From: a bacterium
Lineage (GTDB): Bacteria > Patescibacteriota > Minisyncoccia > Minisyncoccales > DAOWIS01
Direction of reading: 5' to 3'
Assembly (NCBI GenBank): GCA_030640805.1
Contig: DAOWIS010000004.1
Coordinates: 1 to 48,641, forward strand
DNA: 48,641 nucleotides
The position numbers and the translations under genes were made by a program. Under the pieces are notes generated by a model. The model was not told the origin of the DNA, searched no databases, and saw only the letters and a program-made list of their open reading frames with translations. Every line of letters starts with the position of its first letter. Within the stretch, counting starts at the first letter, position 1. Below are positions 6,153 to 34,395 of the stretch, in pieces.

Positions 6153-6968
6153 ATGGATTTAACTTCAAAGCGCACTATAAAACAACTATTCCGGAAATAT
6201 CATTTTCGTCCCAGTAAAAGGTTGGGTCAGTATTTTTTAATTTCTAAATCCGTCCTGAAAAAAATAATTGAGGCAGCAAGCCTAAATTTAAAAGATGTAG
6301 TAATAGAGATTGGACCGGGGATGGGAACTCTTACTGAAGAACTGGCAAAAAGGGCAAAAAAAGTAGTGGCTATAGAAAAAGATGCTAAAATGTGTGAAGT
6401 CTTAAAGGAAACATTAAAAGATTTTAAAAATGTTGAAGTTATTCAAGAAGATATATTAGCGGCAGGCTTTCGTCCTCTGCCCGCTAACTATAAAGTTGTT
6501 GCTAATTTGCCTTATTATATAACTTCGCCGGTCATTAGAAAATTCCTGGAAGCGAAAAATCCGCCTGTTCTGATGGTCTTGATGGTCCAAAAAGAAATTG
6601 CCAAAAGAATTTGTAGTGAACCGCCCAGAATGTCTCTTCTTTCTGTTTCGGTCCAATTCTATGCCAAACCTCAAGTCCTTTCTTATGTCTCTAAAAAATC
6701 TTTCTGGCCACAGCCGAAAGTAGATTCAGCTATAATAAAGTTAAAAGTTAAAAGTTCAAAGTTAAAAGTTGATAAAGATTTATTTTTTAATATCGTTAAA
6801 GCCGGATTTTCTCATCCCCGAAAACAAATAATTAATAATTTATCCAAGGGGTTAAGTCTCTCCAGAGAAAAAGTAAAGATTTGGTTAGAGAAAAACAAAA
6901 TTAGTCCAACCCAAAGAGCCGAAACCTTAAGTGTCAACGATTGGAAACATCTTACCAGATCAATTTAA
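6153..6968 (+). CDS. rsmA: 16S rRNA (adenine1518/1519-N6)-dimethyltransferase
   Basis: Motifs seen are LGQ.FL, EIGPG.G.LT and NLPYYITSPV. It has an in-frame heptamer-repeat insertion (KVKSSKLKV). Confidence 0.9.
   Translation: MDLTSKRTIKQLFRKYHFRPSKRLGQYFLISKSVLKKIIEAASLNLKDVVIEIGPGMGTLTEELAKRAKKVVAIEKDAKMCEVLKETLKDFKNVEVIQEDILAAGFRPLPANYKVVANLPYYITSPVIRKFLEAKNPPVLMVLMVQKEIAKRICSEPPRMSLLSVSVQFYAKPQVLSYVSKKSFWPQPKVDSAIIKLKVKSSKLKVDKDLFFNIVKAGFSHPRKQIINNLSKGLSLSREKVKIWLEKNKISPTQRAETLSVNDWKHLTRSI
6737..6771. repeat. Heptanucleotide tandem repeat (aaagtta-like x5) inside rsmA
   Basis: Five consecutive 7-nt units were read directly; two of them carry a single substitution. Confidence 0.85.
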
Positions 6969-7016
6969 TGTCTAATATTATATCGTTTAATATTATGTCC
7001 TTTCTGATATTATGTC

Positions 7017-7044
7017 CCTTGTACACGCATATGCGTGTACAAGG
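7017..7044. repeat. 28-nt perfect palindrome ccttgtacacgcat|atgcgtgtacaagg (CATATG core)
   Basis: The reverse complement equals the forward sequence. It lies about 50 nt after the rsmA stop. Confidence 0.9.
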
Positions 7045-7106: not shown

Positions 7107-7252
7107 ATTACAATAAACCGAACGAACTATAGTTGACATTATTTTTTTGTGTTAAAATAAAGTAGGAAGAAAATATCTCTCTTCTATATTATCGGTTCAC
7201 TCGGTTAAAATGTAAAAAATTTTACATTTTCCCTTCGCTGCCGATAATAAAA

Positions 7253-9181
7253 ATGATGGCTCTAATAAAAATAAAAAATAAAATAAAAAATATTTTAGTG
7301 CTTTTTAGACCTTTAAGACATTCCGAAAAAGGATTTGTTCCAGTTGCTATCATAGCTGTTATTGGTTTAATATCAACATGTGTTAGTAGCACTCTTTCTT
7401 TTTCCTTAATCGATGACGCAGTAAAAATAGGTCTTGGCGTATTTGCTTCAATTTTTTTATTAATTTTGGCTATTTTCCAAGTAATAACCGCTTTATTCCC
7501 GGTTATAACTGGGGCTGCTTTAAGCACAGTAATAACCAGCGAAGTTCCCTTAACCTCGGGAGGAATAGTAGATGCTGGAGTAGAACTAACTAGAAATTTT
7601 GCTAATCTTTTCTTTATTGTTTTTTTGGTGGCAATTGCTATTGCCACTATTTTAAGATTAGAGCGATATGGAATGAAAAAAGCCCTGCCAATGTTAATTT
7701 TAGCCGCTCTTTTAATAAATTTCAGTTCAGTAATTTGCGGAGTGGTTCTGGACGCTGCTCAAGTTGTAATGAATTTCTTTATAATTGACGCTTGGGACAA
7801 CACCAATATTGGACTATCCTTGTTAGAGATGAATGTTATGGAAGCTATACATTTTGATAACATCAATGATATATTTGAAAATTTTACAACATTAACTTTA
7901 CATCAATTTATCGGAAGGGCAGTTAGTATAGTATTCCGAGGAATAATAGCAATATGCTTTAATGTTATAGTTTTTCTAATTTTAGGAGTATATACTATTG
8001 TTTTCCTTTTACGAATAGTTATTATCTGGATTTTAGTAATTTTAGCTCCTTTGGCTTGGTTGGGATTGGCTTTCCCGGCTATCAGAAGTTGGTGGAGCAC
8101 TTGGTGGAAGCATTTTTTCCAATGGTCAATTATTGGAATTGTTTTGCTCTTCTTTTTATGGCTTTCTCTTAATCTTTTAGTCTTAAGGCCAGGGGATATC
8201 TTTGAAAGCTGTGCAGGCATAGGAGGAGAATCATGTCCTCTTGTTCCAGAGGATTTTTTCAGCGGGGAACGGACTGAAGATGACTGGGAGGAATTCGGCA
8301 GGATGCTCATTTGCAGCATTCTCCCTTTTATAACTATAATAGCTCTTTTAATAATTGGTCTTTTGACAGCAGGCAAGTCTGGCGATGTTGGAGCTGGCCA
8401 TGCCCTAAAAGCAACAAAATGGACCGGCCGAAAAATTGGAGGGGCAGCTGGAGGAGTAGCGAAAGAAAAAGCAGCTGGTTGGGCAATGAAAAAAGGAAGT
8501 TTGGCCCAAAAAATAATAAGGGGAATAGAAACCACTCCACTGGTAGGAAAATGGGTTGGAGGACCAGGGGCTATTAGCGCTCGTCTCAGGCCCCCAGAGG
8601 CAGAAGAGAAAAAAATGATGCGTCAACTGAAACCACGAACAACAGCAGATTTACGCACTAGGTTAAAACAAATTGAAAAATTCCCCAGAGGAAGGAAGAA
8701 CCTTGTAGAAATGTCTACTATCTTGAAAGAAATAGCCGGAAGAAAAGAATTTGAAGATCAAGATACCTTACATTTACCACTTCTTGGATCAAGAGGATTT
8801 AGCACTAAAGATTTTTATAAGGCAAGACCAGATTTGGCTGGAGCGGAAAAATTAACAAAAGAGAAAATTCAAAAAAGAATAGACAAAAAAGAAATTATAG
8901 GAGAATCTGACGACATTTCAGCTGTTATACAAAAAATGTCTCCGGAAGTGTTCCAAAAGAATGCTCAATCTGAAGCTTTAAAAAAATGGGAAACATTTAT
9001 TAGAATGGATATCCCGAAACTTAAACGAATGGGCGGCCAAGGAGATGCTGAACAAATCAAGGCAATAGTAGAGGCCGGTAAAGAAGCTCATAGACGTTTC
9101 TCTACTCTTACTGCAGATCAACAAAAGACAGTAAAAAGCTTGCTTGATGAAATGTCAAAACATCCAGAAACCTGGGCTTAA
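7253..9181 (+). CDS. Polytopic membrane protein, TrbL/VirB6-like, with a long charged C-terminal tail
   Basis: About 8 or more hydrophobic segments fill the first ~380 aa, followed by a K/E/R-rich soluble tail of about 260 aa. It is the first gene of a cluster that contains VirB3-, VirB4- and VirB2-like genes. Confidence 0.55.
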   Translation: MMALIKIKNKIKNILVLFRPLRHSEKGFVPVAIIAVIGLISTCVSSTLSFSLIDDAVKIGLGVFASIFLLILAIFQVITALFPVITGAALSTVITSEVPLTSGGIVDAGVELTRNFANLFFIVFLVAIAIATILRLERYGMKKALPMLILAALLINFSSVICGVVLDAAQVVMNFFIIDAWDNTNIGLSLLEMNVMEAIHFDNINDIFENFTTLTLHQFIGRAVSIVFRGIIAICFNVIVFLILGVYTIVFLLRIVIIWILVILAPLAWLGLAFPAIRSWWSTWWKHFFQWSIIGIVLLFFLWLSLNLLVLRPGDIFESCAGIGGESCPLVPEDFFSGERTEDDWEEFGRMLICSILPFITIIALLIIGLLTAGKSGDVGAGHALKATKWTGRKIGGAAGGVAKEKAAGWAMKKGSLAQKIIRGIETTPLVGKWVGGPGAISARLRPPEAEEKKMMRQLKPRTTADLRTRLKQIEKFPRGRKNLVEMSTILKEIAGRKEFEDQDTLHLPLLGSRGFSTKDFYKARPDLAGAEKLTKEKIQKRIDKKEIIGESDDISAVIQKMSPEVFQKNAQSEALKKWETFIRMDIPKLKRMGGQGDAEQIKAIVEAGKEAHRRFSTLTADQQKTVKSLLDEMSKHPETWA

Positions 9182-9193
9182 AATATTTACAAA

Positions 9194-9718
9194 GTGAAAT
9201 CTATGATGAGTCAAAATTCAAAATTTGAAACTGGGGATTTGATAGATTATCTTCTAAAGAAATATGGGTTAGAAAAAAAGCAAAAAGATTTTATAGAAAG
9301 AAATTTAAAAAAGGGCAGACCAGAGGCGATAGAAAATATCTTTAAAAATGCTCCGGGAAGAAAAATTGCCAATATTGTTATTGAAACCCATAAAAGCAAC
9401 TTAAAAGAAAAGAATATAATCCCTCTAATAGAAAGGGACTTAGATTTCGGTTCAAAAACCGCTAAGAGAATGGCTGAAGATATTATAAAAGGAGTTGAAG
9501 AAAAAAAATTAGAAAAAGATGTGGGTAAAATATATGAGAGATGGAAAGAAAAACTTCAGGAAGAAAAAATTGAAGAAAAACCCAAGGATATAAAGAAAGA
9601 ACCATCTCCTCCAGCGCCAGTAAAAGAAAGCAAAGATGTCTATCGCGAGCCAGTTGAACCTCCAGAAAAACCAGAACCACGACTAAACGGAAACATTGTC
9701 AATCTAAAGGGAAAATAA
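9194..9718 (+). CDS. Hypothetical K/E-rich protein with a Pro-rich C-terminus (GTG at 9194; first ATG at 9203)
   Basis: It is a long ORF in the cluster orientation. No recognisable motif was found. Confidence 0.5.
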   Translation: MKSMMSQNSKFETGDLIDYLLKKYGLEKKQKDFIERNLKKGRPEAIENIFKNAPGRKIANIVIETHKSNLKEKNIIPLIERDLDFGSKTAKRMAEDIIKGVEEKKLEKDVGKIYERWKEKLQEEKIEEKPKDIKKEPSPPAPVKESKDVYREPVEPPEKPEPRLNGNIVNLKGK

Positions 9719-9819
9719 ATAATCTAACCCAAAGAAGAAATTTTAATCATTTTTAAATTTTGAGTTTTAATTTTTCATTTTGAATTTTTAATTTGACCAA
9801 GACCGAAGGTCGAGGAAAC

Positions 9820-10122
9820 ATGCAATATCCAGTTCCTCAATTTATTGAAGTAGAAAGTAAAATTGTTGGGCCTCTTTCTTTAAAACAATTCCTTTACTTG
9901 GTAGGAGGACTGGCAATTTGTGTTATTCTGAATCTTTTCTTAAAATTGGGGGTGGTGATAATTTTAGGAATATTTATTATGGGGTTTGTCGGAGCTCTGG
10001 CTTTCTTGAAAATAAATGGTCAGCCCTTTTCTAAAATTCTAAAATCAATGATTCAATTTAGTTTTGGACCAAGAATCTATGTCTGGAAAAAAGAACGCAA
10101 AAGAAACACAAATTTAAAATAA
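9820..10122 (+). CDS. PrgI-family (VirB3-like) small membrane protein
   Basis: A GAGGA RBS lies 4 nt before the ATG at 9820. The N-terminus is MQYPVPQFIEVESKIVGPLSLKQFLYLVGG, followed by two hydrophobic helices, the pattern I recall for PrgI/VirB3-like proteins of Gram-positive-type T4SS. Confidence 0.6.
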   Translation: MQYPVPQFIEVESKIVGPLSLKQFLYLVGGLAICVILNLFLKLGVVIILGIFIMGFVGALAFLKINGQPFSKILKSMIQFSFGPRIYVWKKERKRNTNLK

Positions 10123-10144
10123 ATTTGTGTTAAATTTGTGATTT

Positions 10145-10780
10145 ATGGCGCAACAAGCAAGTAGTCAACAATTCATAGAGATAGAAGACATCAGGGATGG
10201 AGTAATAATTTTAAAAAATAAAGGATTTAGAGCAATCCTTAGGGTTTCTAGTATTAATTTTGCTCTAAAATCTGGGGAAGAGCAAAATGCTATTATTTTT
10301 CAGTTTCAAAACTTTTTAAATTCTTTAGATTTTTCTATTCAAATAATGGTTCAATCCCGATTTCTGGATATTGCTGACTACCTTAAAAAAATAAAAAGTT
10401 TGGAACAAGAACAGGAAAATGAACTATTAAGAATTCAGAGCGTGGAATATAGAGAATTTGTTCAGAGTTTAGTAGAAACTACAAATATTATGAGGAAGGA
10501 TTTCTATGTAGTAATTCCTTTTACAGTTTTTGAGGCAAAAAGAAAAGGATTTATGGAAACCCTCAAAGCAACTTTTAAGCCTCCGAAAGTAGCAGAAATA
10601 AAAGAAGAAGATTTTGCTAGATATAAAGGTCAACTTTGGCAGAGAGTAAACTATATAACTGAGGGACTGGCCCGGATGGGAATTTATGGTGTTCCCTTAA
10701 ATTCTAAAGAATTAATTCAACTTTTCTGGAGTATTTATAATCCCGGAGAAGCTAAAAAAAGAAAAGCTCCAACAGTATAA
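10145..10780 (+). CDS. Hypothetical soluble protein resembling the N-terminal domain of Gram-positive-type VirB4 ATPases
   Basis: FIEIEDIRDGVIILKNKGFRAILRVSSINFALKSGEEQNAIIFQFQNFLNSLDFSIQIMVQS matches the remembered N-terminal pattern (I..I.dG.i....g.y.kil.v..iNf.l.s.eE). It lacks a P-loop. Confidence 0.45.
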   Translation: MAQQASSQQFIEIEDIRDGVIILKNKGFRAILRVSSINFALKSGEEQNAIIFQFQNFLNSLDFSIQIMVQSRFLDIADYLKKIKSLEQEQENELLRIQSVEYREFVQSLVETTNIMRKDFYVVIPFTVFEAKRKGFMETLKATFKPPKVAEIKEEDFARYKGQLWQRVNYITEGLARMGIYGVPLNSKELIQLFWSIYNPGEAKKRKAPTV

Positions 10781-10886
10781 ATGCCAAATGAAAAATGACA
10801 AATGCCAAATTACAGTTCAAATTTTTTAATTTTTAATTTTACATTTTAACTTTTCATTTTGAATTTTGAATTTGAGCGAAGCAAAC

Positions 10887-12686
10887 ATGGCTTTATTTCC
10901 ATTAAAACCAAAAGTAAAAAACGACAAAAAAACCAAAAAAAAGAAAGAGTTAACAATTCCGGATATCATTGCTCCGGCTGGACTTGAGATAGAGCAAAAC
11001 TATTTAAAATTGGAGAATAAATTTATTCGAACTTATTTTATTATTTCCTACCCAGAGAGTTTAAATACTGGCTGGCTGTCGCCTATAATAAATATAGATC
11101 AAATGACAGATGTCTCTATTTTTATTCATCCAGTAAACACAGGATTGGTTTTAAGAAAATTAAGGAAAAAATTAGCTGAGGTTCAAGCCCAAATTATGGA
11201 AAAAGAGGAAAAAGGACTTGTCCGTGACCCCCTGTTGGAAGCCGCTTACAGGAACATTGAAGATTTAAGAGATAAACTTACTCAAGCCCGAGAGAAAATC
11301 TTTAATTTTGGACTATACATCACTATTTACGGAGAAAGATTAGAAGAATTAGATAAAATTGAATCAAGGATTAGGTCTATTTTAGAAACCGAAATGATTT
11401 ATATGAAGCCAGCCCTGTTTAGGCAAAAAGAAGGACTTAATTCATCTCTGCCTTTCTTGTTAGACCAGTTAGACATAAGCTCTCCTATGAATTCCTCGCC
11501 TCTTTCTACTTCTTTTCCTTTTGTTTCTTTTGATCTTACCTCAAATGAGGGAATTTTATATGGCCTCAATCGCCATAATAATTCTTTAGTTCTTTTTGAC
11601 CGATTTAGTTTAGAAAACGCTAACACAGTTATCTTTGGTAAATCAGGTTCGGGTAAAAGCTACAGCGTTAAGTTAGAAGTGCTCCGTTCCTTGATGCTTG
11701 GAATAGATGTCATCATAATAGACCCGGAAAATGAATATCAATATTTAGCTGAAACCTGCGGCGGTTCTTTCTTTAAAATTTCTTTAACTTCAAAACATCA
11801 CATCAACCCTTTTGATTTGCCGTTAGTAGGAGAGGATGAAACCCCGGAAGATATTTTAAGGTCAAATATTATTAATTTAATAGGACTGCTCCGAATAATG
11901 CTTGGGGGATTATCTCCAGAAGAAGACGCCATTATTGATAAGGCCGTTACTGAAACCTATGCTTCAAGAGATATTACTCCAGAATCGGACTTCTCAAAAA
12001 TTACTCCTCCTTTAATGAAAGACTTAGGAACTATTTTGGAGCACACCGAGGGAGGAGAATCTTTGTCTACTCGGCTTAAAAAATATACCGAAGGAACTTA
12101 CGCTGGTTTTTTGAATAATTACACTAATGTAGATATGGGAGCGAAATTAGTGGTTTTTAATATTAGAGATATGGAAAAAGAACTAAGACCGATCGCTATG
12201 TACATTATTTTGCACTATATCTGGAACACCATTAAATCAGAACTTAAAAAAAGAATTCTCATTGTTGATGAGGCTTGGTGGTTAATGCAACACGATGATG
12301 GCGCCTCTTTTCTCTATGGTTTAGCCAAAAGAGCCAGGAAATATTATTTAGGACTTACCACTATTACCCAAGATGTTAATGATTTTATGAAGTCCACTTA
12401 TGGTCAACCCATTATTAGTAATTCTTCTTTGCAGCTTCTTTTGAAACAGTCACCAGCTACTATAGATATAGTGAAGCAAACCTTTAACTTAACCGACCAA
12501 GAAAAATATCTTTTATTGGAATCTGATGTAGGAGACGGACTATTTTTTGCCGGCTTAAAACATGTGGCTATTAAAGTGGTGGCTTCTTATACTGAAGACC
12601 AAGTTATTACTTCTGACCCGGAACAATTACTGGCTATAAAAAAAGCTAAAGAAGAGTTAGCCAAAGAAGAATTAACCAAAGAGTAA
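10887..12686 (+). CDS. virB4: VirB4/TraC-family type IV secretion ATPase (ATG at 10887; the ORF track starts at TTG 10866)
   Basis: Walker A is FGKSGSGKSY and Walker B is RILIVDEAWWLM. TITQD and a C-terminal sensor region are present. The N-terminal domain reads IIAP.GLEIE...L.....R.YFI..YP. Confidence 0.85.
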   Translation: MALFPLKPKVKNDKKTKKKKELTIPDIIAPAGLEIEQNYLKLENKFIRTYFIISYPESLNTGWLSPIINIDQMTDVSIFIHPVNTGLVLRKLRKKLAEVQAQIMEKEEKGLVRDPLLEAAYRNIEDLRDKLTQAREKIFNFGLYITIYGERLEELDKIESRIRSILETEMIYMKPALFRQKEGLNSSLPFLLDQLDISSPMNSSPLSTSFPFVSFDLTSNEGILYGLNRHNNSLVLFDRFSLENANTVIFGKSGSGKSYSVKLEVLRSLMLGIDVIIIDPENEYQYLAETCGGSFFKISLTSKHHINPFDLPLVGEDETPEDILRSNIINLIGLLRIMLGGLSPEEDAIIDKAVTETYASRDITPESDFSKITPPLMKDLGTILEHTEGGESLSTRLKKYTEGTYAGFLNNYTNVDMGAKLVVFNIRDMEKELRPIAMYIILHYIWNTIKSELKKRILIVDEAWWLMQHDDGASFLYGLAKRARKYYLGLTTITQDVNDFMKSTYGQPIISNSSLQLLLKQSPATIDIVKQTFNLTDQEKYLLLESDVGDGLFFAGLKHVAIKVVASYTEDQVITSDPEQLLAIKKAKEELAKEELTKE

Positions 12687-12687
12687 T

Positions 12688-13170
12688 ATGAACGGTCAAG
12701 CCAGCGAAAATGTTTTAACCGAAAAAGAAATTGGAGTCCAGATAGAAGAAGCTGGCAGAAAAGCTGGGGTAGGTTTTCTTGATATCGATTTCCTCTTAAT
12801 TCTATTCTTTGCCATTTTTATAGATATTATTGATTTGCTCCTTGCTTTATTTGTATTTTTAGATCTCTTTACTATTTCTTGGGCTATTTCTGCTGCCATT
12901 GATGTAGTTATTTTTGCAATTATCGGCGGCTGGATATATTGGCGGACAGGAAAAATTGCTAAAAGTAAAAGAAAAAAAATAGAATCTTTGAAAAAAACTA
13001 TTGCCAAAAGGGGTGCTCAGTTGGAAAAACAATTAGCCAAAGGAATAAAAAGTCCTTTTAGAAGAATGTTAGCCCGGGCCGGACTTGGTTTCCTGGGAGA
13101 AATCGCCTGGCTTGTAGGAATTATCCCTTTTTGGACTATCACTGTTTTATTAACTTTAAAAGAAAAATGA
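12688..13170 (+). CDS. Hypothetical membrane protein (about 4 TM segments), cluster-associated
   Basis: It starts 2 nt after the virB4 stop. Its TGA stop overlaps the next gene's ATG (ATGA). Confidence 0.6.
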   Translation: MNGQASENVLTEKEIGVQIEEAGRKAGVGFLDIDFLLILFFAIFIDIIDLLLALFVFLDLFTISWAISAAIDVVIFAIIGGWIYWRTGKIAKSKRKKIESLKKTIAKRGAQLEKQLAKGIKSPFRRMLARAGLGFLGEIAWLVGIIPFWTITVLLTLKEK

Positions 13171-13568
13171 AATTAACGCTTAAAAAAATATATTTCTCTT
13201 GGATATTTTTTTGTTTAATTTTGGCTTTGGCAAATTTTATTTGTGCCTTAGGAATACAGGAGGCTTTAGCTTGGGAAGTAAATTATCCTCAATTTTTTGG
13301 TGTTTCGCCAGAAGGAGGAGGGTTAGTTAATTACATAAATTACATTTTCAATGCCGCCTTAGGCATAGGAGGAATTTTGGCTTTTATAATGATAGTTGTG
13401 GGAGGAGTCAAATTGATGGTTTCCGGTGGCAATCCGTCTAAAATCAGCGATGCTAAAGACCAAATTACCTCAGCTATAATTGGACTTTTGCTTTTACTCG
13501 GGTCTTGGCTAATTCTAAATACTATCAATCCTCAATTAACTGTTTTAACTCTACCTGAATTGCCTTAA
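13167..13568 (+). CDS. TrbC/VirB2-like T4SS pilin (133 aa from the ATG at 13167)
   Basis: A signal peptide ending ALA|WEV is followed by two hydrophobic helices separated by GGNPSKISDAKDQI. This is the hairpin layout of VirB2-type pilins. The start overlaps the previous stop. Confidence 0.6.
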   Translation: MKLTLKKIYFSWIFFCLILALANFICALGIQEALAWEVNYPQFFGVSPEGGGLVNYINYIFNAALGIGGILAFIMIVVGGVKLMVSGGNPSKISDAKDQITSAIIGLLLLLGSWLILNTINPQLTVLTLPELP

Positions 13569-13580
13569 CCGTTAAAATTA

Positions 13581-13611
13581 AAATCTATTGATTTCGGAAA
13601 TCAATAGATTT
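13581..13611 (+). promoter_or_regulatory. 31-nt near-perfect palindrome (15+1+15) between the pilin and pilin-fusion genes; possible attenuator or operator
   Basis: The sequence is aaatctattgatttc-g-gaaatcaatagattt, with the same core as 7070-7092. It lies 12 nt after the pilin stop and 5 nt before the next ATG. Confidence 0.5.
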
Positions 13612-13616
13612 ATTAA

Positions 13617-15290
13617 ATGAAAAAAGTTAAAAAAATTTCTGTTTTAATTTTTTTCCTAATCTTGGGTTTGGGAATTTTTGTTTTTATTTCAGCATTTACC
13701 CCCACACCGAATTTGGTGTGGGGGAAAGAAGTGGATTATCCAGCAATTCCTGGTGCTGAATCTATCACTGAGGGAACCACTCTCCCTCAATATATTAACT
13801 ATATTTTCAATGCTGCTCTCTGGATCGGAGGAATTTTGTGTTTAGCAATGATTATCTGGGGAGGATTTGTCATAATGACAGCTGGCGGAAGTATTGCCAA
13901 AGCAAAAGATGGTAGAGAAAGAATTATTTATGCTATAGGAGGATTATTTCTTCTTTTGGCTTCTTATTTGATTTTATATACTATCAATCCTGAACTAACT
14001 GTTTTAAAACTTCCAGAAATAGCAGAAATTTCTCTTCCTGAATATAATGACGGTGAAATTCCCCAACCTACTGAACCTCAATATGAAATAGAAAAGTTAT
14101 TTTTTGGCGGTTATCTTAGGGAAGCTATGGAATTAGAAAGAGAATCGGCTGAGAAAATGAGACAAATGGTTTGTCTTTCAGTGGGAGATAGGTTTAAGGA
14201 TGAATGTAAAAGGGGGGCCGTCCGTAAGATTTTTGGTTTTGATAAATGCAGATGTGAATATTGCATTCCTTGTATAGCCCAAATATATGTTGAAATAGGA
14301 TGTATTCCTTGTTTCCCTTGTTTTTGCACTGGGAAAGGTCCGGAAGAACTCTGTCCTAAAAATATTTATAAAACTGGTAAAAACACTTTAGATTTAGCCG
14401 AGCGAATAACAAAAAACGCTAATGATTTAGAAAATGCCTTGGAAGGAGAAGGTAAAGATTGCATTAGAGATCCCTCCTGTTTTATTTATGATTATGTTAT
14501 GTCCTGTTGCCCTGACCCACCATTAAGAGCGGCTTGCCCTTCAGGAGGATGTGATTTAGAAAAAGCATCTACTCATTTTATTATCTGCCCAAAAGGAGAA
14601 GATTGTAAATTATTAATATTAGAAAAAGAGGATCAAGATCTAATTAAAGAAGCTATAGAAGCCCAGAGAGAAACAGCAGAAATTATAAGAGAAATGATTG
14701 AAAAAATTAGAGATTGTAGCTGTAAGGGGTATGGAAGTAATGAAGGGTGTAAGTATGAACTCGGAGATGGTTTTTCACCAATCCCTGGTTGTGGCAGCTG
14801 TGGGGGATGTGAATGCAAATGGGGATATGCAGCTGTTGCAGAGCTTAATGAGCTTAGGGATACCAATTGGGAAGATCTACGTGATAGAGCAGTTGGCCAA
14901 ATAAAAGACCAGTTAGGTAATTTACTCATTCAAAGCCTCATCGGGACAATTGACCCCACTGGCTATCTTGCCAATAAACTTAAGGAAGCACTTGATGATC
15001 TATTTAATCTTGGTAGCAAGGGGTTTGATCTTGACCTTCCCTGCAATCCCAAAATTATTCCCCTAATGTATGATCTTGAAGAATTAGCTGATCTGATGGA
15101 AGAAAACGCTGATGAATTAGAACATGGTGTATCTCGGGAAAAACTTATCAAATGCGCTGAAGACGAATTAAAGGGTAAGGCCACCCTTAATTACTGCCCC
15201 TTTGAAGATGGATTAGGTTGTCCAGAGGCCTGTAAGAATGACCCTCGTGATTGTGAATTAACTGATTTCGTCTGTATCAGAAAAAAATAA
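13617..15290 (+). CDS. Pilin-like N-terminal domain fused to a ~420-aa Cys-rich extracellular domain
   Basis: Residues ~35-135 are clearly paralogous to the 13167 pilin (YINYIFNAAL.IGGIL...MI..GG, TINP.LTVL.LPE). I count 33 Cys after residue ~185, including CxC, CC, CxxC and CGSCGGCEC runs. Confidence 0.7.
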   Translation: MKKVKKISVLIFFLILGLGIFVFISAFTPTPNLVWGKEVDYPAIPGAESITEGTTLPQYINYIFNAALWIGGILCLAMIIWGGFVIMTAGGSIAKAKDGRERIIYAIGGLFLLLASYLILYTINPELTVLKLPEIAEISLPEYNDGEIPQPTEPQYEIEKLFFGGYLREAMELERESAEKMRQMVCLSVGDRFKDECKRGAVRKIFGFDKCRCEYCIPCIAQIYVEIGCIPCFPCFCTGKGPEELCPKNIYKTGKNTLDLAERITKNANDLENALEGEGKDCIRDPSCFIYDYVMSCCPDPPLRAACPSGGCDLEKASTHFIICPKGEDCKLLILEKEDQDLIKEAIEAQRETAEIIREMIEKIRDCSCKGYGSNEGCKYELGDGFSPIPGCGSCGGCECKWGYAAVAELNELRDTNWEDLRDRAVGQIKDQLGNLLIQSLIGTIDPTGYLANKLKEALDDLFNLGSKGFDLDLPCNPKIIPLMYDLEELADLMEENADELEHGVSREKLIKCAEDELKGKATLNYCPFEDGLGCPEACKNDPRDCELTDFVCIRKK

Positions 15291-15313
15291 AAAGTTTTCT
15301 TCAAAATTAATGT

Positions 15314-16480
15314 ATGGAAAAATTTTATCTTTCTCTAATATTAATAATTCTAATAATAGCCGGTGTCTCGGCTTATTTTTTTCTTGAGAAAAAAGAAGAT
15401 TTAATAGAAATTGAAATTCCAGAATCTTCTAACCAAAAAAGTCCTCTAAACAGAAATTCTTCCTCTTTTCAATCTTCTGTTTTACCTCAACTCCAAATTG
15501 AAAAAATTTCTCCGGCTAAAGTAATTTCACCGACTCTCAACGAAAATTCATCAAAAATAATTTATTATAATCCCGAGAGTTTGAGTTTGGAAGAAATTGA
15601 TTTTAAAAAAGAAAATTCTCCCTATAATCAATTTTTGTCTTTAGCAAAATTTGAAGGAATAAATAAAATTCTCTGGTCTCCAGAGAAAGACAAATTAATC
15701 GTTTTCTGGGAAAAAGAGGGTCAAATTCAGAAAACTCTCTATAATCCAGAAACTCAAGAGGGTTTTGATCTCCATCAAAATATCAAAAATATTGCTTTTT
15801 CACCTGAAGGAGAAAAAATTGTTTATCAATTTTATAATTCTGAAACCGGAGAAAACAAAATTTCTGTTGCCAGCACCGAAATTTTAGAAACCGAAATTTT
15901 AGAAGAGGAAGATATTTTAAACACTAAAATTTTAGATATAGATCTTTATTGGCCATCGGAAAATAAAATTTTTCTTTGGCAGAATCTCTCTGGGGTATTG
16001 GAAGAAAATGATCTATATCAATTTGACTTAGTAACAAAAAATCCTCCTTTAGTAGTTTTGCCAAAAAAATTTGGCTTCAAACCTAAATGGTCAGAAAGCG
16101 GAAAACTAATTCTATTTTCCGAAGTTCCTTCTTTGGGAGAAGAAGTTAGTCTAAATACTTTAAATAATGAAGGAGAAATCAAAAATCTTAAAATTTCTTC
16201 TTTAGTGGAAAAATGTGCTTTTGATAAGGAAGAAAAATCTCTTTACTGCGGCATCCCTAAAAATTTAGCTCCTGACATTATTCTTCCCGATGATTACTAT
16301 AAAAATTTATTCCAATCCCAAGATAATCTTTTCAAAATTAATTTAGAAACCGGTGAAAAAATTCAGCTTACAAAAGATGCTCAACATGATATCCTTGAGC
16401 CATTTTTGTCCGCTGATGAAAATCATTTATTCTTTACCAATAAAAAAGACGGAGCTTTGTACTCCATCCAACTGGAATAA
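15314..16480 (+). CDS. N-terminally anchored protein with TolB-like beta-propeller-type repeats
   Basis: It has an N-terminal TM segment. Repeated motifs include ILWSPEKDKLIVFW, IAFSPEGEKIVYQF, WSESGKLILFSE and LSADENHLFFTN..DGALYSI. Confidence 0.55.
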   Translation: MEKFYLSLILIILIIAGVSAYFFLEKKEDLIEIEIPESSNQKSPLNRNSSSFQSSVLPQLQIEKISPAKVISPTLNENSSKIIYYNPESLSLEEIDFKKENSPYNQFLSLAKFEGINKILWSPEKDKLIVFWEKEGQIQKTLYNPETQEGFDLHQNIKNIAFSPEGEKIVYQFYNSETGENKISVASTEILETEILEEEDILNTKILDIDLYWPSENKIFLWQNLSGVLEENDLYQFDLVTKNPPLVVLPKKFGFKPKWSESGKLILFSEVPSLGEEVSLNTLNNEGEIKNLKISSLVEKCAFDKEEKSLYCGIPKNLAPDIILPDDYYKNLFQSQDNLFKINLETGEKIQLTKDAQHDILEPFLSADENHLFFTNKKDGALYSIQLE

Positions 16481-16549
16481 AACCCAACAACCAAATCCGA
16501 ATCCCGAAAAAAATCCTAAATCCCAATAACCAAAATTAAAATTGGGCAT

Positions 16550-17830
16550 TTAGGCATTGGTCATTTTTTCGGATTTCTGGTTTCGGATTTTTGGGGTTTT
16601 TACAATTGCCATCAATCCTATTATCAGCCAGAATATTACTGCCAGGTCGTTTTTCCAATAGGGAGTATCTATTAAACCATGAATGAGAATGTAGAGCATA
16701 ATTAACATTAGAATTCCTGAAACTTGAAACTTGAAACCTGAAACCTTTATTAGTTGAAAACCTTTTTTGAAAAATAAAATCAAAAGCCAAAGGAAACCAA
16801 TAAGTCCCAAGATACCGGTTTGCAGCCAAAAGGCAAAAAAAATATTGTGGGGTTGGGGAACAGCCCATTCTAAATAAAGAGGAAAATATTTTTGATATTC
16901 CAAATAATATTTTTGAAACATTCCCGGACCAACCCCTAAAAGAGGATGGTCTTTTGCTATCTCCCAAGATACTTTCCAAACTATTAATCTGGAAACTAAG
17001 GGTGAACGACTATCAAAAAGGCCTTGGAATTTTTCGCTCTGATATTGAGAAAAAAATAAAACAAAAAATAACAATAAGGTAATAGAACAACAGAGTAATA
17101 CTTTTTTAATTGATAATTTTAAATATTTAATAATTAAAAATACTAAAAAGAGAAAGGACCCTAATATACCTATCCAGGCGCCATAGGAGTAGGTGAGATA
17201 TAAAACTACAACTAATAAGATTATTCCTATTGTCCAAAGAAGTTTCTTTAATCTATTCTTAGTAGTTAGTAATAAATAAAAAATAGCAATTAGGCAAGGC
17301 GCTAAATACATTGCTAAATGGTTGGGAGAAAGATAAAAAGCTTTTAATCGACCATCAAAAGTTAGGTTGTTGCTCAAATAATATCCTAAACTAATGATGC
17401 CAACCAAAATTCCTGATAATCCCAGAGCAGATAATAAATATTTTATCTGTTTTTTGGTCTTTAACACATTAATTATTACTAAAAACAAAAGAAGAGGATT
17501 AAGAAAATAGGCTTTCCAAGTCCCAGCTGAAACTAAAAACTCCGAAGAAAAAATAGTAGAGAGGGTTGCCCCTAAAAAGATTAATAATATTGGATATTGA
17601 ATTTTAGATATTAGATTTGGGGATTTGGGATTTGGGATTTGGAAATTTTTTCGGATTTCGGATTTAGAAATTAGAATTTTACTTTTTTTGATAAACCAAA
17701 TCAAAAAAAGCATATAAATCATTAATTCCAAAACCGTTGTAGGAATTCCAAAAATCTTTAATCTTAAAAGATAAAGCGGCAAACAGAGAATAACTAAATA
17801 AATACCCCAATTTAATTTAAATTCTCTCAT
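16550..17830 (-). CDS. O-antigen ligase/Wzy-like polytopic membrane protein (start revised to ATG at 17830)
   Basis: It has about 10 or more TM segments and the motif YSYGAWIGILGSFLF. The ORF-track extension 17831-17908 runs through a 36-nt palindrome. Three heptamer-repeat-derived insertions are present. Confidence 0.65.
   Translation of the reverse strand: MREFKLNWGIYLVILCLPLYLLRLKIFGIPTTVLELMIYMLFLIWFIKKSKILISKSEIRKNFQIPNPKSPNLISKIQYPILLIFLGATLSTIFSSEFLVSAGTWKAYFLNPLLLFLVIINVLKTKKQIKYLLSALGLSGILVGIISLGYYLSNNLTFDGRLKAFYLSPNHLAMYLAPCLIAIFYLLLTTKNRLKKLLWTIGIILLVVVLYLTYSYGAWIGILGSFLFLVFLIIKYLKLSIKKVLLCCSITLLLFFVLFFSQYQSEKFQGLFDSRSPLVSRLIVWKVSWEIAKDHPLLGVGPGMFQKYYLEYQKYFPLYLEWAVPQPHNIFFAFWLQTGILGLIGFLWLLILFFKKGFQLIKVSGFKFQVSGILMLIMLYILIHGLIDTPYWKNDLAVIFWLIIGLMAIVKTPKIRNQKSEKMTNA
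16718..16745. repeat. Heptanucleotide tandem repeat (tgaaact/tgaaacc x4) inside the Wzy-like gene
   Basis: Read directly in the sequence. It encodes VSGFKFQVSG on the minus strand. Confidence 0.85.
17614..17664. repeat. Adjacent heptamer arrays (gatttgg x4, then tcggatt x2) inside the Wzy-like gene
   Basis: Read directly in the sequence. They encode SEIRKNFQIPNPKSPN on the minus strand. Confidence 0.85.
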
Positions 17831-17871
17831 TATTAAATTATAACAGAAAATAAATAACAAGAAATAAAAAC

Positions 17872-17907
17872 TGTTACAAATCGCTGCGATCGCAGCGATT
17901 TGTAACA
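17872..17907. repeat. 36-nt perfect palindrome tgttacaaatcgctgcga|tcgcagcgatttgtaaca (CGATCG core)
   Basis: The reverse complement equals the forward sequence. It has the same length and the same central hexamer as 1989-2024. Confidence 0.9.
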
Positions 17908-17993
17908 ACCTATCTCCAGCCCTATATTTTCAACTATTGAGGTTCACCTCTATAATCTTAATAAATCTTAATACCGGCTTAAATTAACTTAAA

Positions 17994-18257: not shown

Positions 18258-18286
18258 AACTTATCACATCGAAAAATTTCTGTCAA
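18258..18286 (-). promoter_or_regulatory. Sigma70-type promoter (TTGACA-17 nt-TAAGTT) for the 59-aa ORF
   Basis: Read on the minus strand. The -35 overlaps the TGA stop of the upstream gene. Confidence 0.5.
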
Positions 18287-19662
18287 AAACCAGATGTTGG
18301 TTTTGGGACCTTTCTGGCAATAATAGCGCTCAAAGCCAAAATTACCATTAGTATTGATAATATTCTGGGGTCGTATATTGGGGTATCTACCAAGCAATGA
18401 ATAGAAAACCAAACCAAAGAGCCAATTAATCCAATGGAAATTGCCTTATCGAATCCATCTAAATCTGTGTTCTTAGCCATACTAATCCGTAATTTGCGAA
18501 ACAAAGAAAAAATAGCTCCGAAAATCAAAAATAACCAAACAAGTAAAGCTAAAATTCCCATCTCTGAACCAATGTCTAAATAGGTATTGTGGCTATAAAT
18601 AGGAGTGCGATAATCAGCTGTTAGAGTTATAAAACGAGAGTAATTTCCAAGTCCGGTGCCCAGCCAAAATTTGCTTAAAAATATTTCAGCGCTTTTCTGC
18701 CAGGTTTCAATTCTCCCAGCTAGCGAGGGTTCACTGAGGTCAAAAATAGAGTAAAAACGATCGGAAATCGGAGAACCAGGAATTAATAAAATCAACAAAG
18801 CCATTCCAATAATAGCGCTTAATTTCCATTTAGTCCTGATATTAAATTTACTTTTCCAAAAAAGTATAAGAATTACTCCTAATCCGCCAATCATTCCTAA
18901 ATAGCCACCTCGAGAAAAAGTGAGATATAAAGCAACAAGCAACAAGAGACAAGCGACAAGAAGAAATAAATTGTTTACCCTGTAATACTTTCTAAGTATT
19001 ACAGGGTTTATTTTTCCTTTCCTTCCCTCAGATTGCCAAAACCACAAAGATAAGATTATTGGTAAAGCTAAGCCAATATAAAAAGCCAACATATGGGGAT
19101 CGGGAAATAAAGAAATGGCTCGGAAAATTGTTAAACCAGAAATATTAACTGCCCAACTGGGAGTTTGAATAATCTGAGAGGTTGCGGTCTTGCCATAAAA
19201 TATTGGAGCAACATTTTCCGCCCAAAATTGAAAAAGAGAGTCCACCCCTGTTATAAATTGTAAAGAAAACTGAATAATTCCAATTAAGGCGATAAAAAAA
19301 GCACTATAAACTAAGATTTTTAAAATATTTTTAAACAACTTGGGGTCTCTATAAACCATCCCAGCCACTATAAAATAAAGAGGGAAAATAGATAAAAAAA
19401 CCAAAAGTTTTCTAACTCCCCATCCTAAAATCGGCGCTTGGAATAAAGAGAGAAAAGCAAAAAAAAGAAAGAACATTAAAAATCCTGTCTGAATTTTATT
19501 GGGAATGAATAGTTTCTTTTTAACTAAAGAGCTAATTAACCAGAGAGAAAACAAAATTAAAATTAAAACCCTTATTGAAGCGATATCAAATCCCTCAGCT
19601 AAATTCAGGGCAACTTGAAAGGGAATATAAAAGATGAGAAAGTAGAGAAAGTGCTTTAGCAT
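18283..19662 (-). CDS. O-antigen ligase family polytopic membrane protein (start revised to ATG at 19662)
   Basis: It is multi-TM and has the Wzy_C-like motif LTFSRGGYLGMIGGLGVILILF, with a large loop before the last helices. Confidence 0.7.
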   Translation of the reverse strand: MLKHFLYFLIFYIPFQVALNLAEGFDIASIRVLILILFSLWLISSLVKKKLFIPNKIQTGFLMFFLFFAFLSLFQAPILGWGVRKLLVFLSIFPLYFIVAGMVYRDPKLFKNILKILVYSAFFIALIGIIQFSLQFITGVDSLFQFWAENVAPIFYGKTATSQIIQTPSWAVNISGLTIFRAISLFPDPHMLAFYIGLALPIILSLWFWQSEGRKGKINPVILRKYYRVNNLFLLVACLLLLVALYLTFSRGGYLGMIGGLGVILILFWKSKFNIRTKWKLSAIIGMALLILLIPGSPISDRFYSIFDLSEPSLAGRIETWQKSAEIFLSKFWLGTGLGNYSRFITLTADYRTPIYSHNTYLDIGSEMGILALLVWLFLIFGAIFSLFRKLRISMAKNTDLDGFDKAISIGLIGSLVWFSIHCLVDTPIYDPRILSILMVILALSAIIARKVPKPTSGF

Positions 19663-19815
19663 AATGCAGAATGTTAAATGACAAAATCCAAATGTCAAAT
19701 GAATGTTTAAATATCAAATGTCAAAATAATAATTTAATCATTTAGTCATTGGTCATTGATTAGACATTTATCATTGGGCATTTGTCATTTTATTTGGTAT
19801 AAGATTAAACACTCA
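19663..19815. repeat. Imperfect-palindromic intergenic repeat element (copy 1 of the 'aaatgtcaaatg...catttgtcattt' family)
   Basis: It shares a nearly identical stretch of about 55 nt (aatgtcaaatgaatgtttaaat..caaatgtcaaaa.aataatttaatcattta) with 35056-35193. Confidence 0.7.
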
Positions 19816-23628: not shown

Positions 23629-24966
23629 ATGAACAAGAGTCAACTTTGGCAATCTGTTCTTGCTGAAATTGAATTAAATACCTCGCCGGCTAATTTTGCC
23701 ACTTGGTTTAAGCAAACCTCTGTCTTTTCCAAAAAAGATAGTGTAATTACTATCCAGGTTCCCAATGCTTTCACTAAAGAATGGTTGGAAAATAAATACA
23801 ATAAATTTATTTTTAAAACTATTCGTTCTTTTCTGCCAGAAATAAAAGAAATTAATTATACCATCCACCAACCAAAACCCAAGATCCTTTCTTTTAAAAA
23901 AACTCCCTCTTTAGAAAGACAGTTAGATATATCTCAAATCAAAATCAATAAAGAAACGAATCTTAATCCTCGATATACCTTTGAATCATTTGTGGTTGGT
24001 TCTTTTAATGAATTAGCTAATGCTGCCAGTCAAGCAGTGGTAAAATCGCCAGGCCGAACCTATAATCCTTTATTTATTTATGGAGGGGTTGGGTTAGGGA
24101 AAACTCATCTTCTCCAGTCCATAGGGAACGAAATAACAAAAAATAAACCGTCTTTTAGAGTAATCTACCTTCCTTCAGAAAGATTCACTTCAGAATTGGT
24201 CTCGTCTATTCGGTCTAAAACCGTAAATAATCTTAAACAGAAATATCAAAAAATGGATGTCTTAATTTTGGATGATGTCCAGTTTCTGGGTGGAAAAGAA
24301 AAAACTCAGGAAGAATTTTTTCATATTTTTAATTGTTTGTACGAAAAAAATAAGCAAATTATTTTAAGCTCGGACTGTCCCCCAAAATCTATTTCCACCT
24401 TAGAAGAAAGGCTTCGTTCCCGATTTGAGGGCGGAATGATAGCTGACATTGGATATCCTGATTTTGAAACAAGGGTGGCTATACTTAAAACAAAAATCCA
24501 AGAAAAAAATGTCCAAATTAATGATGGAATTATAAACTTTATTGCTGAGAATATTACAAATAATATTCGGGAGATAGAAGGAGCGCTAAATCGAGTGATT
24601 GCCTCTAATTCTCTTTCTACCCTTTCTTTAGAAGAAGCAAAAAGAAACCTCAAAAAAATTATCACTCCACTAAAAACTATTACCAATTTTAAAAATATCA
24701 TCAAAACAGTTTGTGAGTTCTACGACATATTAGAAAAAAATCTTATTGCTAAGTCTCGAAAAAAAGAAGTAGTTTATCCAAGACAAGTAGCAATGTATTT
24801 AGTTAGAGAAGAATTAAAAAATTCTTATCCCTCAATAGGAGATAGGTTTGGGAAAAGAGACCATACTACTGTTATTTATGCTTGTGAAAAAATTGAAAAA
24901 GAATTACAAAAAGAAGAGAAACTTTTTCAGGAAATAAGTATTATCCGTCAACGACTCTATAAATAG
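23629..24966 (+). CDS. dnaA: Chromosomal replication initiator protein DnaA
   Basis: Motifs seen are NPLFIYGGVGLGKTHLL, LILDDVQFL.GKE.TQEEFFH.FN, NIRE.EGAL and the C-terminal HTTV DNA-binding motif. Confidence 0.95.
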   Translation: MNKSQLWQSVLAEIELNTSPANFATWFKQTSVFSKKDSVITIQVPNAFTKEWLENKYNKFIFKTIRSFLPEIKEINYTIHQPKPKILSFKKTPSLERQLDISQIKINKETNLNPRYTFESFVVGSFNELANAASQAVVKSPGRTYNPLFIYGGVGLGKTHLLQSIGNEITKNKPSFRVIYLPSERFTSELVSSIRSKTVNNLKQKYQKMDVLILDDVQFLGGKEKTQEEFFHIFNCLYEKNKQIILSSDCPPKSISTLEERLRSRFEGGMIADIGYPDFETRVAILKTKIQEKNVQINDGIINFIAENITNNIREIEGALNRVIASNSLSTLSLEEAKRNLKKIITPLKTITNFKNIIKTVCEFYDILEKNLIAKSRKKEVVYPRQVAMYLVREELKNSYPSIGDRFGKRDHTTVIYACEKIEKELQKEEKLFQEISIIRQRLYK

Positions 24967-32369: not shown

Positions 32370-32371
32370 TT

Positions 32372-33727: not shown

Positions 33728-33732
33728 TATAA

Positions 33733-34395
33733 TTACTTTTTCTCCGATAAATCAATGTGCTGTAAAACCTCTTTAAATCTAAAATATTCTGAAACCCGAA
33801 GACCAGTCCATTTTCCAAGAATAAAATTTATAATAATGATTCCCAGGAAGATATAAAGGGGATAGTCCAGAACTAAAGTTTGAAGTAAAGACCATTTAAT
33901 AATAAAATAAGAAATTGTTGCCAAAATAAGGGTTTGGAAAGTTAAAGCTACAGCCACGCTATTTCCCCTTTCAATTTGGGCAGCCACAAATTTCTCAATT
34001 AAGATGACAATTATAAGGATAGGGAAAATAGAAATTTCTAAAAGATCAGCCAGGCCAATATATCTTCCTCCCAAAAACATAAAAAAGACAAGAAGAGTTA
34101 CCCCGCTAAGAACTAAGGCAATCCTGGGAAGATAGAGAAGGCGGAACCTTTTTAGTATAAACCTAAGAGCGGTTCCTGCTAAAAGAACCGAAATAAAGAT
34201 AATCATTCCGTAGTTTAAGCCAGTCGCCACAAAAGCGAAGGCGATAATCAAAGAGGTATAAATCCCAAATCCTTTAATCCCAATTATTTCTCGAGAGAAA
34301 GCGACAAAAGTAGCAATAATAGGCACCATTAAAAGAAGGATTAAGGTTTCTTGGGGTACCCCAGATTGGATCATGTATTGACTTAGAGAAAACAT
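33733..34395 (-). CDS. Polytopic (~7 TM) membrane protein, probably the 7TM partner of the ATP-grasp system
   Basis: It has about 7 hydrophobic segments and sits 5 nt upstream of the ligase gene. It resembles the 7TM module usually fused to an inactive transglutaminase in such operons; the assignment is by context. Confidence 0.5.
   Translation of the reverse strand: MFSLSQYMIQSGVPQETLILLLMVPIIATFVAFSREIIGIKGFGIYTSLIIAFAFVATGLNYGMIIFISVLLAGTALRFILKRFRLLYLPRIALVLSGVTLLVFFMFLGGRYIGLADLLEISIFPILIIVILIEKFVAAQIERGNSVAVALTFQTLILATISYFIIKWSLLQTLVLDYPLYIFLGIIIINFILGKWTGLRVSEYFRFKEVLQHIDLSEKK

Follow-up and report, generated by a model that had tools for sequence, protein, structure and literature searches.

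A type IV secretion system (T4SS) locus on contig DAOWIS010000004.1 of the Patescibacteriota assembly GCA_030640805.1 (positions 1 to 48,641, analyzed at full length and referred to here as the window) encodes a 557-amino-acid protein in which a pilin module is fused in frame to a 422-residue, cysteine-rich tail that matches nothing but itself. The interpretation we favor, with a probability of about 0.5, is that this is a genuine, lineage-specific pilin carrying a hypervariable, cysteine-paired, extracytoplasmic C-terminal head on a VirB2-like PF18895 module, and displaying it at the T4SS as a stalk or adhesin. The fusion, the family and predicted membrane topology of the pilin module, the T4SS context, and the orphan character of the tail are established here, as are the prevalence, hypervariability, and even cysteine counts of the corresponding tails in relatives. 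This tailed-pilin architecture is widespread in Parcubacteria and, as far as we found, undescribed. Disulfide bonds within the window protein itself, display on a fiber, an adhesive role, and a minor-subunit stoichiometry would all belong to this interpretation, and a tip adhesin or minor pilin is a plausible candidate role for the long protein.

The comparisons below draw on 80 related loci collected by a genome scan with the window VirB4, all from Patescibacteria/Parcubacteria metagenome-assembled genomes (MAGs), whose VirB4 proteins are 61–72% identical to that of the window. Open reading frames (ORFs) called in these loci and searched with the pilin module as query yielded 82 pilin-domain proteins in 71 loci, and a profile re-search of the loci added three more. 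Tails were defined as the residues past the projected end of the pilin module.

The long gene starts with ATG and runs unbroken for 557 codons (13617..15290, + strand), and its pilin module, delimited by the Pfam match, AlphaFold2 (AF2), hydropathy, and invariant alignment columns, comprises residues 1–135 (13617..14021). The T4SS_pilin family PF18895 matched residues 54–122 over model positions 3–70 of 71 (E 2e-10, 41 bits, Pfam cutoff 26.6), and membership of the long protein in this family is established. Directly upstream lies a tail-less T4SS pilin (13167..13568, + strand) that also belongs to PF18895 (E 9e-14) and is 50% identical over 132 amino acids to residues 4–135 of the long protein (BLASTP, E 2e-26), in an alignment that takes in YINYIFNAAL-IGGIL and GG...M..GG and stops at TINPxLTVLxLPE. 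At the DNA level, the two pilin genes are 70–72% identical at a 459-nt offset, with the last match at 14018, and the homology stops exactly at the end of the short gene. The two modules were reciprocal best matches among the 84 pilin domains compared, which indicates that the duplication is lineage-specific, and a profile re-search found exactly two pilin genes within the window. The original prediction, made from the sequence without database searches, had described the long protein as a paralogue of the upstream pilin fused in frame, and these comparisons bear this out. It had also given the upstream pilin 133 amino acids; the gene is listed as 145 amino acids from TTG 13131, but the ATG at 13167 shares bases with the stop codon of the gene before it (ATGA, 13167–13170), which makes the 133-residue start likelier.

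From its N-terminus, the pilin module of the long protein consists of a signal-peptide-like helix (residues 2–27), a conserved (E)xxYPxIPG motif, a transmembrane (TM) helix (56–87), a short basic loop (AKAKDGRER), and a second TM helix (93–123), and it terminates in an invariant SYLILxTINPxL. AF2 run on an 8-sequence alignment placed helices at these same positions with pLDDT >90 for the hairpin, hydropathy peaks fell at residues 9–27, 68–86, and 103–121, and the pilin alignment was invariant at G83, G109, and S116-L-I-L-x-T-I-N-P-x-L. On this model, the hairpin loop is predicted to be cytoplasmic, and both ends of the hairpin, together with the 422-residue tail, to lie outside the cell.

This layout resembles that of the canonical conjugative pilins VirB2, TrbC, and TraA (PF04956; Agrobacterium T-pilin, RP4, and F) in its signal peptide, two-helix hairpin, short basic loop, and linkage to VirB4. 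In canonical conjugative pilins both ends should face outward, such that a C-terminal addition would be surface-exposed. However, these proteins are ~70–120 amino acids when mature and are trimmed or cyclized, whereas the window protein is extended and has no match to PF04956 (TrbC/VirB2) at E ≤ 0.1; only 2 of 66 relatives matched that family, and weakly (3e-4). Membership in the classical VirB2/TrbC family is therefore not established, and the link to canonical VirB2 is indirect. Other searches with the pilin module were equally quiet: a profile search of the Protein Data Bank (PDB) returned only PsbZ (E > 2) and no relative of solved structure, tblastn against 72,556 plasmids found no plasmid-borne relative, and Foldseek of a model with pLDDT 73 gave no match at E ≤ 0.001, its top matches being nonspecific helical hairpins (e.g., ATP synthase subunit c); a hairpin of two helices has too little structure to be discriminating. 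A third protein search with the same query returned 4 short matches and provides no global length census. In terms of size, a fiber subunit is expected to measure roughly 100–200 amino acids, which places the 557-residue protein outside the range and its 133-residue paralogue within it; small size is nevertheless an unreliable trait of PF18895 in this clade, where 42 of 82 relatives carry tails of at least 100 residues.

Could the fusion be an artefact, i.e., an assembly chimera or frameshift joining a short pilin to an unrelated cysteine-rich gene? The protein is recorded from a single contig, and a look-up of encoding contigs gave no second, independent assembly. Against this, the same architecture was found in 71 of the 82 relatives, which come from independent assemblies, and at the junction near codon 135 we detected no alternative-frame ORF of at least 20 amino acids on the coding strand and no homopolymer. 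The tail contains no start codon that is followed by a signal peptide, and could be exported only as part of the fusion; moreover, an open frame of 1.67 kb in DNA of 35% GC is beyond chance. The sequence accordingly gives no sign of a frameshift or chimera in the long ORF, and we regard an artefact as barely credible.

The tail itself (residues 136–557; 14022..15287, + strand) is set apart by its composition. The protein contains 34 cysteines; C75 lies in the first membrane helix and the other 33 belong to the tail, a recount that agrees with the number first reported, and the motifs DKCRCEYCIPC, CIPCFPCFC, SCCPD, and GCGSCGGCECK are all present as described. Cysteine makes up 7.8% of the tail versus 0.71% of the 19 other window proteins, and the tail is acidic (82 D+E versus 52 K+R) with 2 histidines only. 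An acidic, proline-containing linker is followed by long E/K-rich helices alternating with cysteine clusters. Homology searches recovered only the protein itself, whether 5.8 billion clusters were queried by word index or 1.84 billion representative proteins were searched exhaustively with phmmer (HMMER). Metagenome contigs gave no match, phmmer against all ORFs of 82 loci (E ≤ 10) yielded self or noise only, phmmer found nothing in the PDB, and neither Pfam nor NCBIfam was matched at E ≤ 0.1, leaving PF18895 as the only Pfam family in the long protein. By these searches, the tail is a true orphan, in line with the original prediction, in which the cysteine-rich domain had gone unrecognized.

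Within the tail, two segments of similar layout can be delineated. Module A (residues ~160–275; 14094..14441, + strand) reads as a helix, CxCxxCxxC...CxxCxxCxC...CP, and a helix, and module B (residues ~335–445; 14619..14951, + strand) as a helix, CxC...C...CxxCxxCxC, and a helix, which makes it a weak internal repeat of module A. In a Smith–Waterman comparison of the tail halves, LREAMELERESAEKMRQMV paired with IKEAIEAQRETAEIIREMI plus following Cys (z 3.5; 5 of 500 shuffles as good). Module A was also marginally similar to the tails of two long pilins belonging to a three-long-pilin array on contig L082, namely the 571-residue P0003 (z 3.7; 3 of 200 shuffles) and a 608-residue pilin (z 2.6), and another long-tailed pilin, P0002 (423 amino acids), adjoins further pilins on L081. 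The helix/cysteine-cluster/helix arrangement was considered as a general module, but a profile built from the window protein, P0002, and P0003 matched nothing in the 80 loci.

Across the related loci, tails on pilins are the rule. Among the 82 pilin-domain proteins, 71 have tails of at least 30 residues, 42 of at least 100, 8 of at least 200, and 3 of at least 300, and 61 tails contain at least four cysteines. The original prediction had considered the architecture unusual, a view that these frequencies overturn for this clade. Median tail cysteine content was 6.5%, versus 0.54% for 643 other long ORFs from these loci. The tails are also hypervariable, with 72 tails falling into 61 BLAST clusters (E ≤ 1e-3), 57 of them singletons, while VirB4 is still >60% identical and the pilin module still recognizable. 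The window tail, at 422 residues and 33 cysteines, is the largest and most cysteine-rich of the set, followed by that of locus L044 (393 residues, 24 cysteines). Nor do homologues always follow a short pilin gene, a regularity the original prediction had raised: 64 loci have a single pilin, the long pilin comes first in L015 and L023, and in most relatives the only pilin of the locus is tailed. In L001, which encodes the closest VirB4 relative (72% identity), a 131-residue pilin of another subtype (6626–7021; NGLVPCGG...C..C) is followed by a second pilin ORF (~7150–7271; …LEQQYPTIRGE…) that is broken off by the contig end before any tail.

Cysteine counts in relatives bear on how such tails might be stabilized. 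Of 71 cysteine-containing tails, 66 have an even number of cysteines (binomial p = 1.2e-14), and these include 30 multiples of four versus 36 other counts, i.e., no preference for fours. Since the counts are even with no excess of multiples of four, they point to pairwise disulfides rather than metal sites. A head stabilized by either disulfides or metal had been envisaged for the window protein: the disulfide half of that proposal gains support from the relatives, and the metal half loses it. In its fullest form, the latter would make the tail a metal-binding or redox domain, with CxC and CxxCxxCxC clusters coordinating Zn, Fe–S, or other metals in a metallothionein-like or electron-transfer role. 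CRCEYCIPC, CIPCFPCFC, and CGSCGGCEC do resemble metal-binding clusters, but the tail is predicted to be extracytoplasmic, its cysteine content is far from the ~30% of metallothioneins, it has the two histidines only, and no Pfam metal-binding domain was found in it at E ≤ 0.1. Together with the parity pattern, this makes a metal-binding tail very improbable.

Some of the tails in relatives are recognizable enzymes. A Pfam scan of 66 tailed pilins identified an SLT domain in L023 (4558–5490; E 3e-30), in a gene followed by a tail-less pilin, a VanY domain in L057 (12755–13738; E 2e-8), and a Peptidase_M23 domain in L068 (3746–5122; E 6e-11), the last at residues 313–421 of 459, after a cysteine-rich stretch in a tail with 22 cysteines. 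The scan gave a second SLT match among the 66 proteins. In addition, the profile of a tail cluster comprising eight BLAST-grouped proteins (L015, L029, L033, L034, L041, L048, L071, and L079) plus L009 matched the zinc-site region of the Hedgehog N-domain, which has the LAS peptidase fold. This match is weak but consistent (E 0.016–0.06), with Hedgehog chains filling essentially the whole match list, and an H...D...HxH-type pattern is common to the cluster, the C-terminus of P0003 being listed with it; these tails are probably divergent LAS-type wall peptidases borne on pilins. The presence of wall enzymes implies, independently of the topology prediction, that the tail position lies outside the membrane, and by the sequence evidence this position is a slot for functional heads. 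Arrays of 3–4 long-tailed pilins in two Spechtbacterales MAGs (L068 3746–9938 and L044 10187–14351), in which every tail is different, illustrate the range. Further motifs picked out by eye in these arrays, i.e., an SLT-like ES...GLYQ (L068 5841–6944), an NlpC/P60-like GDILLS...GHVSIW (L068 8649–9938), and an HExxH (L044 11314–12933), were unconfirmed by Pfam at E ≤ 0.001.

By extension, the window tail could itself end in a divergent cell-wall hydrolase that serves as the missing VirB1-like lytic function. The SLT, VanY, M23, and LAS-like heads on the same pilin scaffold lend this some appeal, as does the L068 protein, in which M23 after a cysteine-rich stretch resembles a stalk plus head. 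However, permissive searches of Pfam, NCBIfam, and the PDB gave no match to the window tail, which also shows no hydrolase signature at E ≤ 0.1 and contains no HExxH, LAS H...D...HxH, or HxH motif, with just the two histidines already noted. In addition, separate LysM-CHAP and G5-DPBB (RlpA-like) wall enzymes are encoded just upstream in the window. A cryptic enzyme head in the window protein is thus very unlikely.

In a different explanation, the pilin module is only an export carrier and the tail is cut at the invariant TINPxL...LPE junction, the freed cysteine-rich effector or toxin being released or passed to the T4SS and the trimmed pilin maturing like the short one. The VirB2/TrbC propilins of RP4 and the Ti plasmid are known to be trimmed at the C-terminus, and tail-less pilins (the window short pilin and those of L027, L059, and L065) end no more than ~10 residues past TINPxL, exactly where tails begin. 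Cysteine-rich domains of this kind also exist unfused: L081 encodes, between two long-tailed pilin genes, a free-standing 330-residue, 21-cysteine protein with an N-terminal hydrophobic segment (9276–10268), whose CxCxC...PCGP-helix pattern is of the same kind as in the cysteine-rich tails and suggests both fusion and fission between pilin modules and cysteine-rich domains. Against cleavage, the operon contains no evident protease gene, known trimmed segments measure tens of residues rather than 422, and the junction motif has a simple explanation in that the second TM helix ends there. We consider a cleaved cargo unlikely.

Under the favored interpretation of a displayed head, the signal sequence and two-helix hairpin would be inserted through Sec with the basic loop inside and both ends outside, and the 422-residue tail, having no signal peptide of its own, would be exported via the pilin module. 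Its 33 cysteines would then be oxidized to disulfides outside the membrane, stapling the alternating long helices into a rigid, protease-resistant stalk. The pilin module would dock or polymerize at the VirB4-driven T4SS, and the stalk would project from the pilus or channel to the host cell envelope as an adhesin or contact device. The tail-less upstream paralogue would probably provide most subunits. The long form may be held in the minority by a hairpin between the two pilin genes (13581..13611, + strand), for which RNA folding gave a perfect 14-bp stem and a 3-nt loop (AAATCTATTGATTT-CGG-AAATCAATAGATTT; −12.7 kcal/mol, z = −3.9, a stability reached by none of 200 shuffles). A gap of 5 nt separates the hairpin from the ATG of the long gene, whose expression it could lower.

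Several observations weigh against this interpretation. Placing a 45-kDa head on each subunit of a VirB2-type fiber seems sterically difficult, given the geometry of the F pilus. The tail has no homologue, and hence no conservation or covariation backs any fold; single-sequence AF2 of the full protein gave a pLDDT of 41, and values of 30–45 across the tail are uninformative. Its cysteine count is odd (33), unlike that of most relatives, and reaches 34 if the membrane residue C75 is included. The intergenic hairpin has no U-tract and is thus not a classical terminator. Loci L036, L063, and L068 have long-tailed pilins only, which means that a tail-less partner is not a general requirement, though these genomes could encode further pilins outside the loci compared. 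No Patescibacterial T4SS has been shown to produce a pilus, and a review grants these systems only the “potential to elaborate conjugative pili” (PMC12857230). Finally, genes for disulfide-forming enzymes were not found within the 48.6-kb window; an MdbA-like disulfide oxidoreductase and VKOR are enriched in CPR genomes (bioRxiv 10.1101/335083).

The difficulty of packing large heads on every subunit, together with the fact that the sole pilin of most related loci is tailed, could also be accommodated if the hairpin were only a two-helix anchor and the protein a non-polymerizing, cysteine-rich envelope protein of pilin descent that is not fiber-borne. However, the pilin module is strongly constrained (invariant G83, G109, and SYLILxTINPxL) and its gene keeps the same position within the T4SS operon across 70+ loci, which suggests a T4SS-specific role over mere anchoring. 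A simple surface anchor is, in our assessment, rather improbable.

Patescibacterial VirB2-like pilins, reviewed in PMC12857230, have been reported near virB4 in 1,135 assemblies, including 441 arrays of 2–11 genes with an average identity of 25% (Quinonero-Coronel et al. 2025, PMC12102498), and Southlakia epibionticum cannot grow epibiotically without its T4SS and pilin array (Wang et al. 2023, PMC10633639). These systems have no relaxase or coupling protein, and their role is considered obscure (PMC10633639, PMC12102498); a PrgB-type adhesin has also been reported absent (PMC12102498). In a structure-clustering preprint, PF18895 dominates freshwater-specific clusters, which fits a great diversity of the family. 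The window pilins share with the published ones the Pfam family, the PrgI/TrsD/VirB4 context, an origin-proximal site near dnaA, and the occurrence as tandem, divergent paralogues. However, the published pilins are described as small and sequence-divergent, whereas the window module bears a 422-residue orphan domain. Cysteine-rich or enzymatic C-terminal pilin tails are not mentioned in PMC12102498, PMC10633639, or PMC12857230, and a full-text literature search combining Patescibacteria pilins with cysteine-rich or disulfide terms found no publication. Published surveys report VirB1 as mostly missing near virB4, and the pilin–hydrolase fusions of L023, L057, and L068 are not mentioned there.

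The closest concept to a tailed T4SS pilin comes from type 4 pili, in the form of modular type IV pilins. Streptococcus sanguinis PilB and PilC (PMC8179133, PMC9934059) likewise consist of a conserved pilin module with a C-terminal adhesive graft, and act as minor subunits beside a plain major pilin. Their filaments, however, are of an unrelated superfamily that is characterized by one N-terminal alpha-1 helix and relies on a prepilin peptidase and a PilB/PilC machine, and their grafted modules are known folds (vWA, lectin), whereas the graft in the window is a cysteine-rich orphan. The VirB5-type minor pilin or tip adhesin of Gram-negative T4SSs and the PrgB adhesin of Gram-positive ones are comparable only in the proposed role, i.e., touching the target cell at the far end of the T4SS: VirB5 is a separate, soluble, helical, and non-homologous protein, in contrast to a fusion to a VirB2-like module, and neither the VirB5/TraC/CagL nor the PrgB families were among the Pfam or NCBIfam matches of the long protein at E ≤ 0.1. 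Large cysteine-rich proteins of Peregrinibacteria (Anantharaman et al. 2016, PMC4736985) are similar in their export, ~7% cysteine, strain variability, and proposed attachment function; these proteins average ~1,655 amino acids, however, are neither pilin fusions nor located in T4SS operons, and showed no detectable sequence relation.

Taken together, these comparisons suggest that Parcubacteria pilins are not bare shaft subunits but carry exported, probably disulfide-bonded, fast-diversifying heads, some of which are peptidoglycan hydrolases. If so, the Patescibacterial T4SS would look like a device for attaching to or breaching the host envelope, which would explain the absence of a separate adhesin and, often, of VirB1. 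The class-level result, with variable, even-cysteine, and sometimes lytic heads as the norm, is more interesting than the single protein. The window protein is the most extreme member of this class in tail length, cysteine number, and lack of homologues, and possibly has a new disulfide-rich fold. A broader proposal, which we put forward only tentatively, is that Parcubacteria generally use the VirB2-like pilin to carry interchangeable heads on a relaxase-less T4SS fiber or stub. Its subunits might present a hypervariable, disulfide-stapled adhesin or a wall hydrolase to the host, merging the roles of VirB2, VirB5, VirB1, and PrgB, and the window tail might represent a new fold class (helix, Cys-knot, helix stalk) evolving fast under host-specificity pressure. 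As a source of such hypervariability, mutagenesis of the diversity-generating retroelement type was considered and rejected for the window, with no template/variable repeat pair over 14022–15290. Among direct and inverted repeats of 30 nt or longer, only a 39-nt, 74% match, seemingly due to chance, involves that interval, and no reverse transcriptase was found among the window ORFs scanned.

The long pilin gene lies within a single-strand (+) block of T4SS genes (7253–16480), in which the order polytopic protein–PrgI–TrsD–VirB4–...–pilin–propeller is kept in 56–76 of the 80 related loci. The block opens with a 642-residue polytopic protein (7253..9181, + strand) with 7 predicted TM helices by hydropathy and a hydrophilic C-terminal half. 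It has no Pfam or NCBIfam match but occupies the VirB6/PrgH position, and a VirB6-like role may be proposed from position and topology; homologues were found upstream of virB4 in 56 of the 80 loci. An unassigned ORF for a 174-residue protein (9194–9718, + strand) precedes a small PrgI/VirB3-like membrane protein (9793..10122, + strand; PF12666 PrgI, E 4e-11; kept in 75/80 loci). VirB4 function is split between a 211-residue TrsD-like protein resembling the N-terminal part of VirB4 (10145..10780, + strand) and a 606-residue VirB4-type T4SS ATPase (10866..12686, + strand; PF19044 TraG P-loop, E 5e-26; AAA_10, E 4e-15). The NCBIfam matches of the former (VirB4_plasma, E 5e-11; CD1110, 3.5e-9; TrsD, 8e-4) cover the N-terminal region of the models and are below full-length cutoffs. 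This split is kept in 76 of the 80 loci and is thus not a frameshift. The virB4 gene ends 930 nt upstream of the long pilin gene, and is followed by a gene for a 160-residue membrane protein identified by hydropathy (12688..13170, + strand), whose stop overlaps the short pilin start and whose sequence is conserved in only one of the 80 loci. Downstream of the long pilin, a 388-residue protein with one N-terminal TM helix (15314..16480, + strand) weakly resembles TolB-like beta-propellers (TIGR02800, E 1.5e-6, well short of the cutoff), and its homologues directly follow the pilin in 57 of the 80 loci. The Patescibacterial T4SS has been reported to be origin-proximal (PMC12102498), and the position of dnaA in the window (23629–24966), ~8 kb from the long pilin gene, fits this report.

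Beside dnaA, the essential gene dnaN (DNA polymerase III beta clamp; 25234–26364, + strand) is broken by a single in-frame TAA at 25837–25839. The N-terminal/central piece (25234–25839) and the C-terminal piece (25960–26364) share a frame and the translation is sensible through the stop (...KKTAQ*KIRIF...), which points to an error in sequencing or assembly, a variant within the population, or readthrough. Short intergenic repeat families (CATTTAGGCATTGGTCATT, AATGCCAAATGAAAAATGACAAATG, and CCAAATCCGAAT) recur between convergent or divergent genes at 16491–16590, 17623–17672, 19663–19796, 35063–35190, and 42300–42401, including one 121-nt pair with 86% identity (19670–19790 and 35063–35183). 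Two adjacent genes encode Wzy_C O-antigen-ligase-like proteins (16550–17908 and 18283–19698), and a palindrome with a 20-bp stem (AGGTTGTTACAAATCGCTGCGATCGCAGCGATTTGTAACAGTTT; 17868–17911, − strand) overlaps the 5′ end of the first. An operon on the − strand (30559–34395) encodes three ATP-grasp proteins (RimK-like, ATP-grasp_6, and ATPgrasp_ST with a Zn_protease-like end) and a 7TM_transglut membrane protein, and looks like a peptide-ligation or modification system. Finally, the regions 35962–37473 and 39104–41754 (− strand) encode a surface protein with Lamin-tail and PKD domains and a T2SSE (PilB-like) ATPase, followed by a 339-residue ORF with no Pfam match; a type IV pilus-type ATPase thus shares the window with the T4SS, and the neighborhood of L081 is similar to this T2SSE region (TsaE, T2SSE, LTD).

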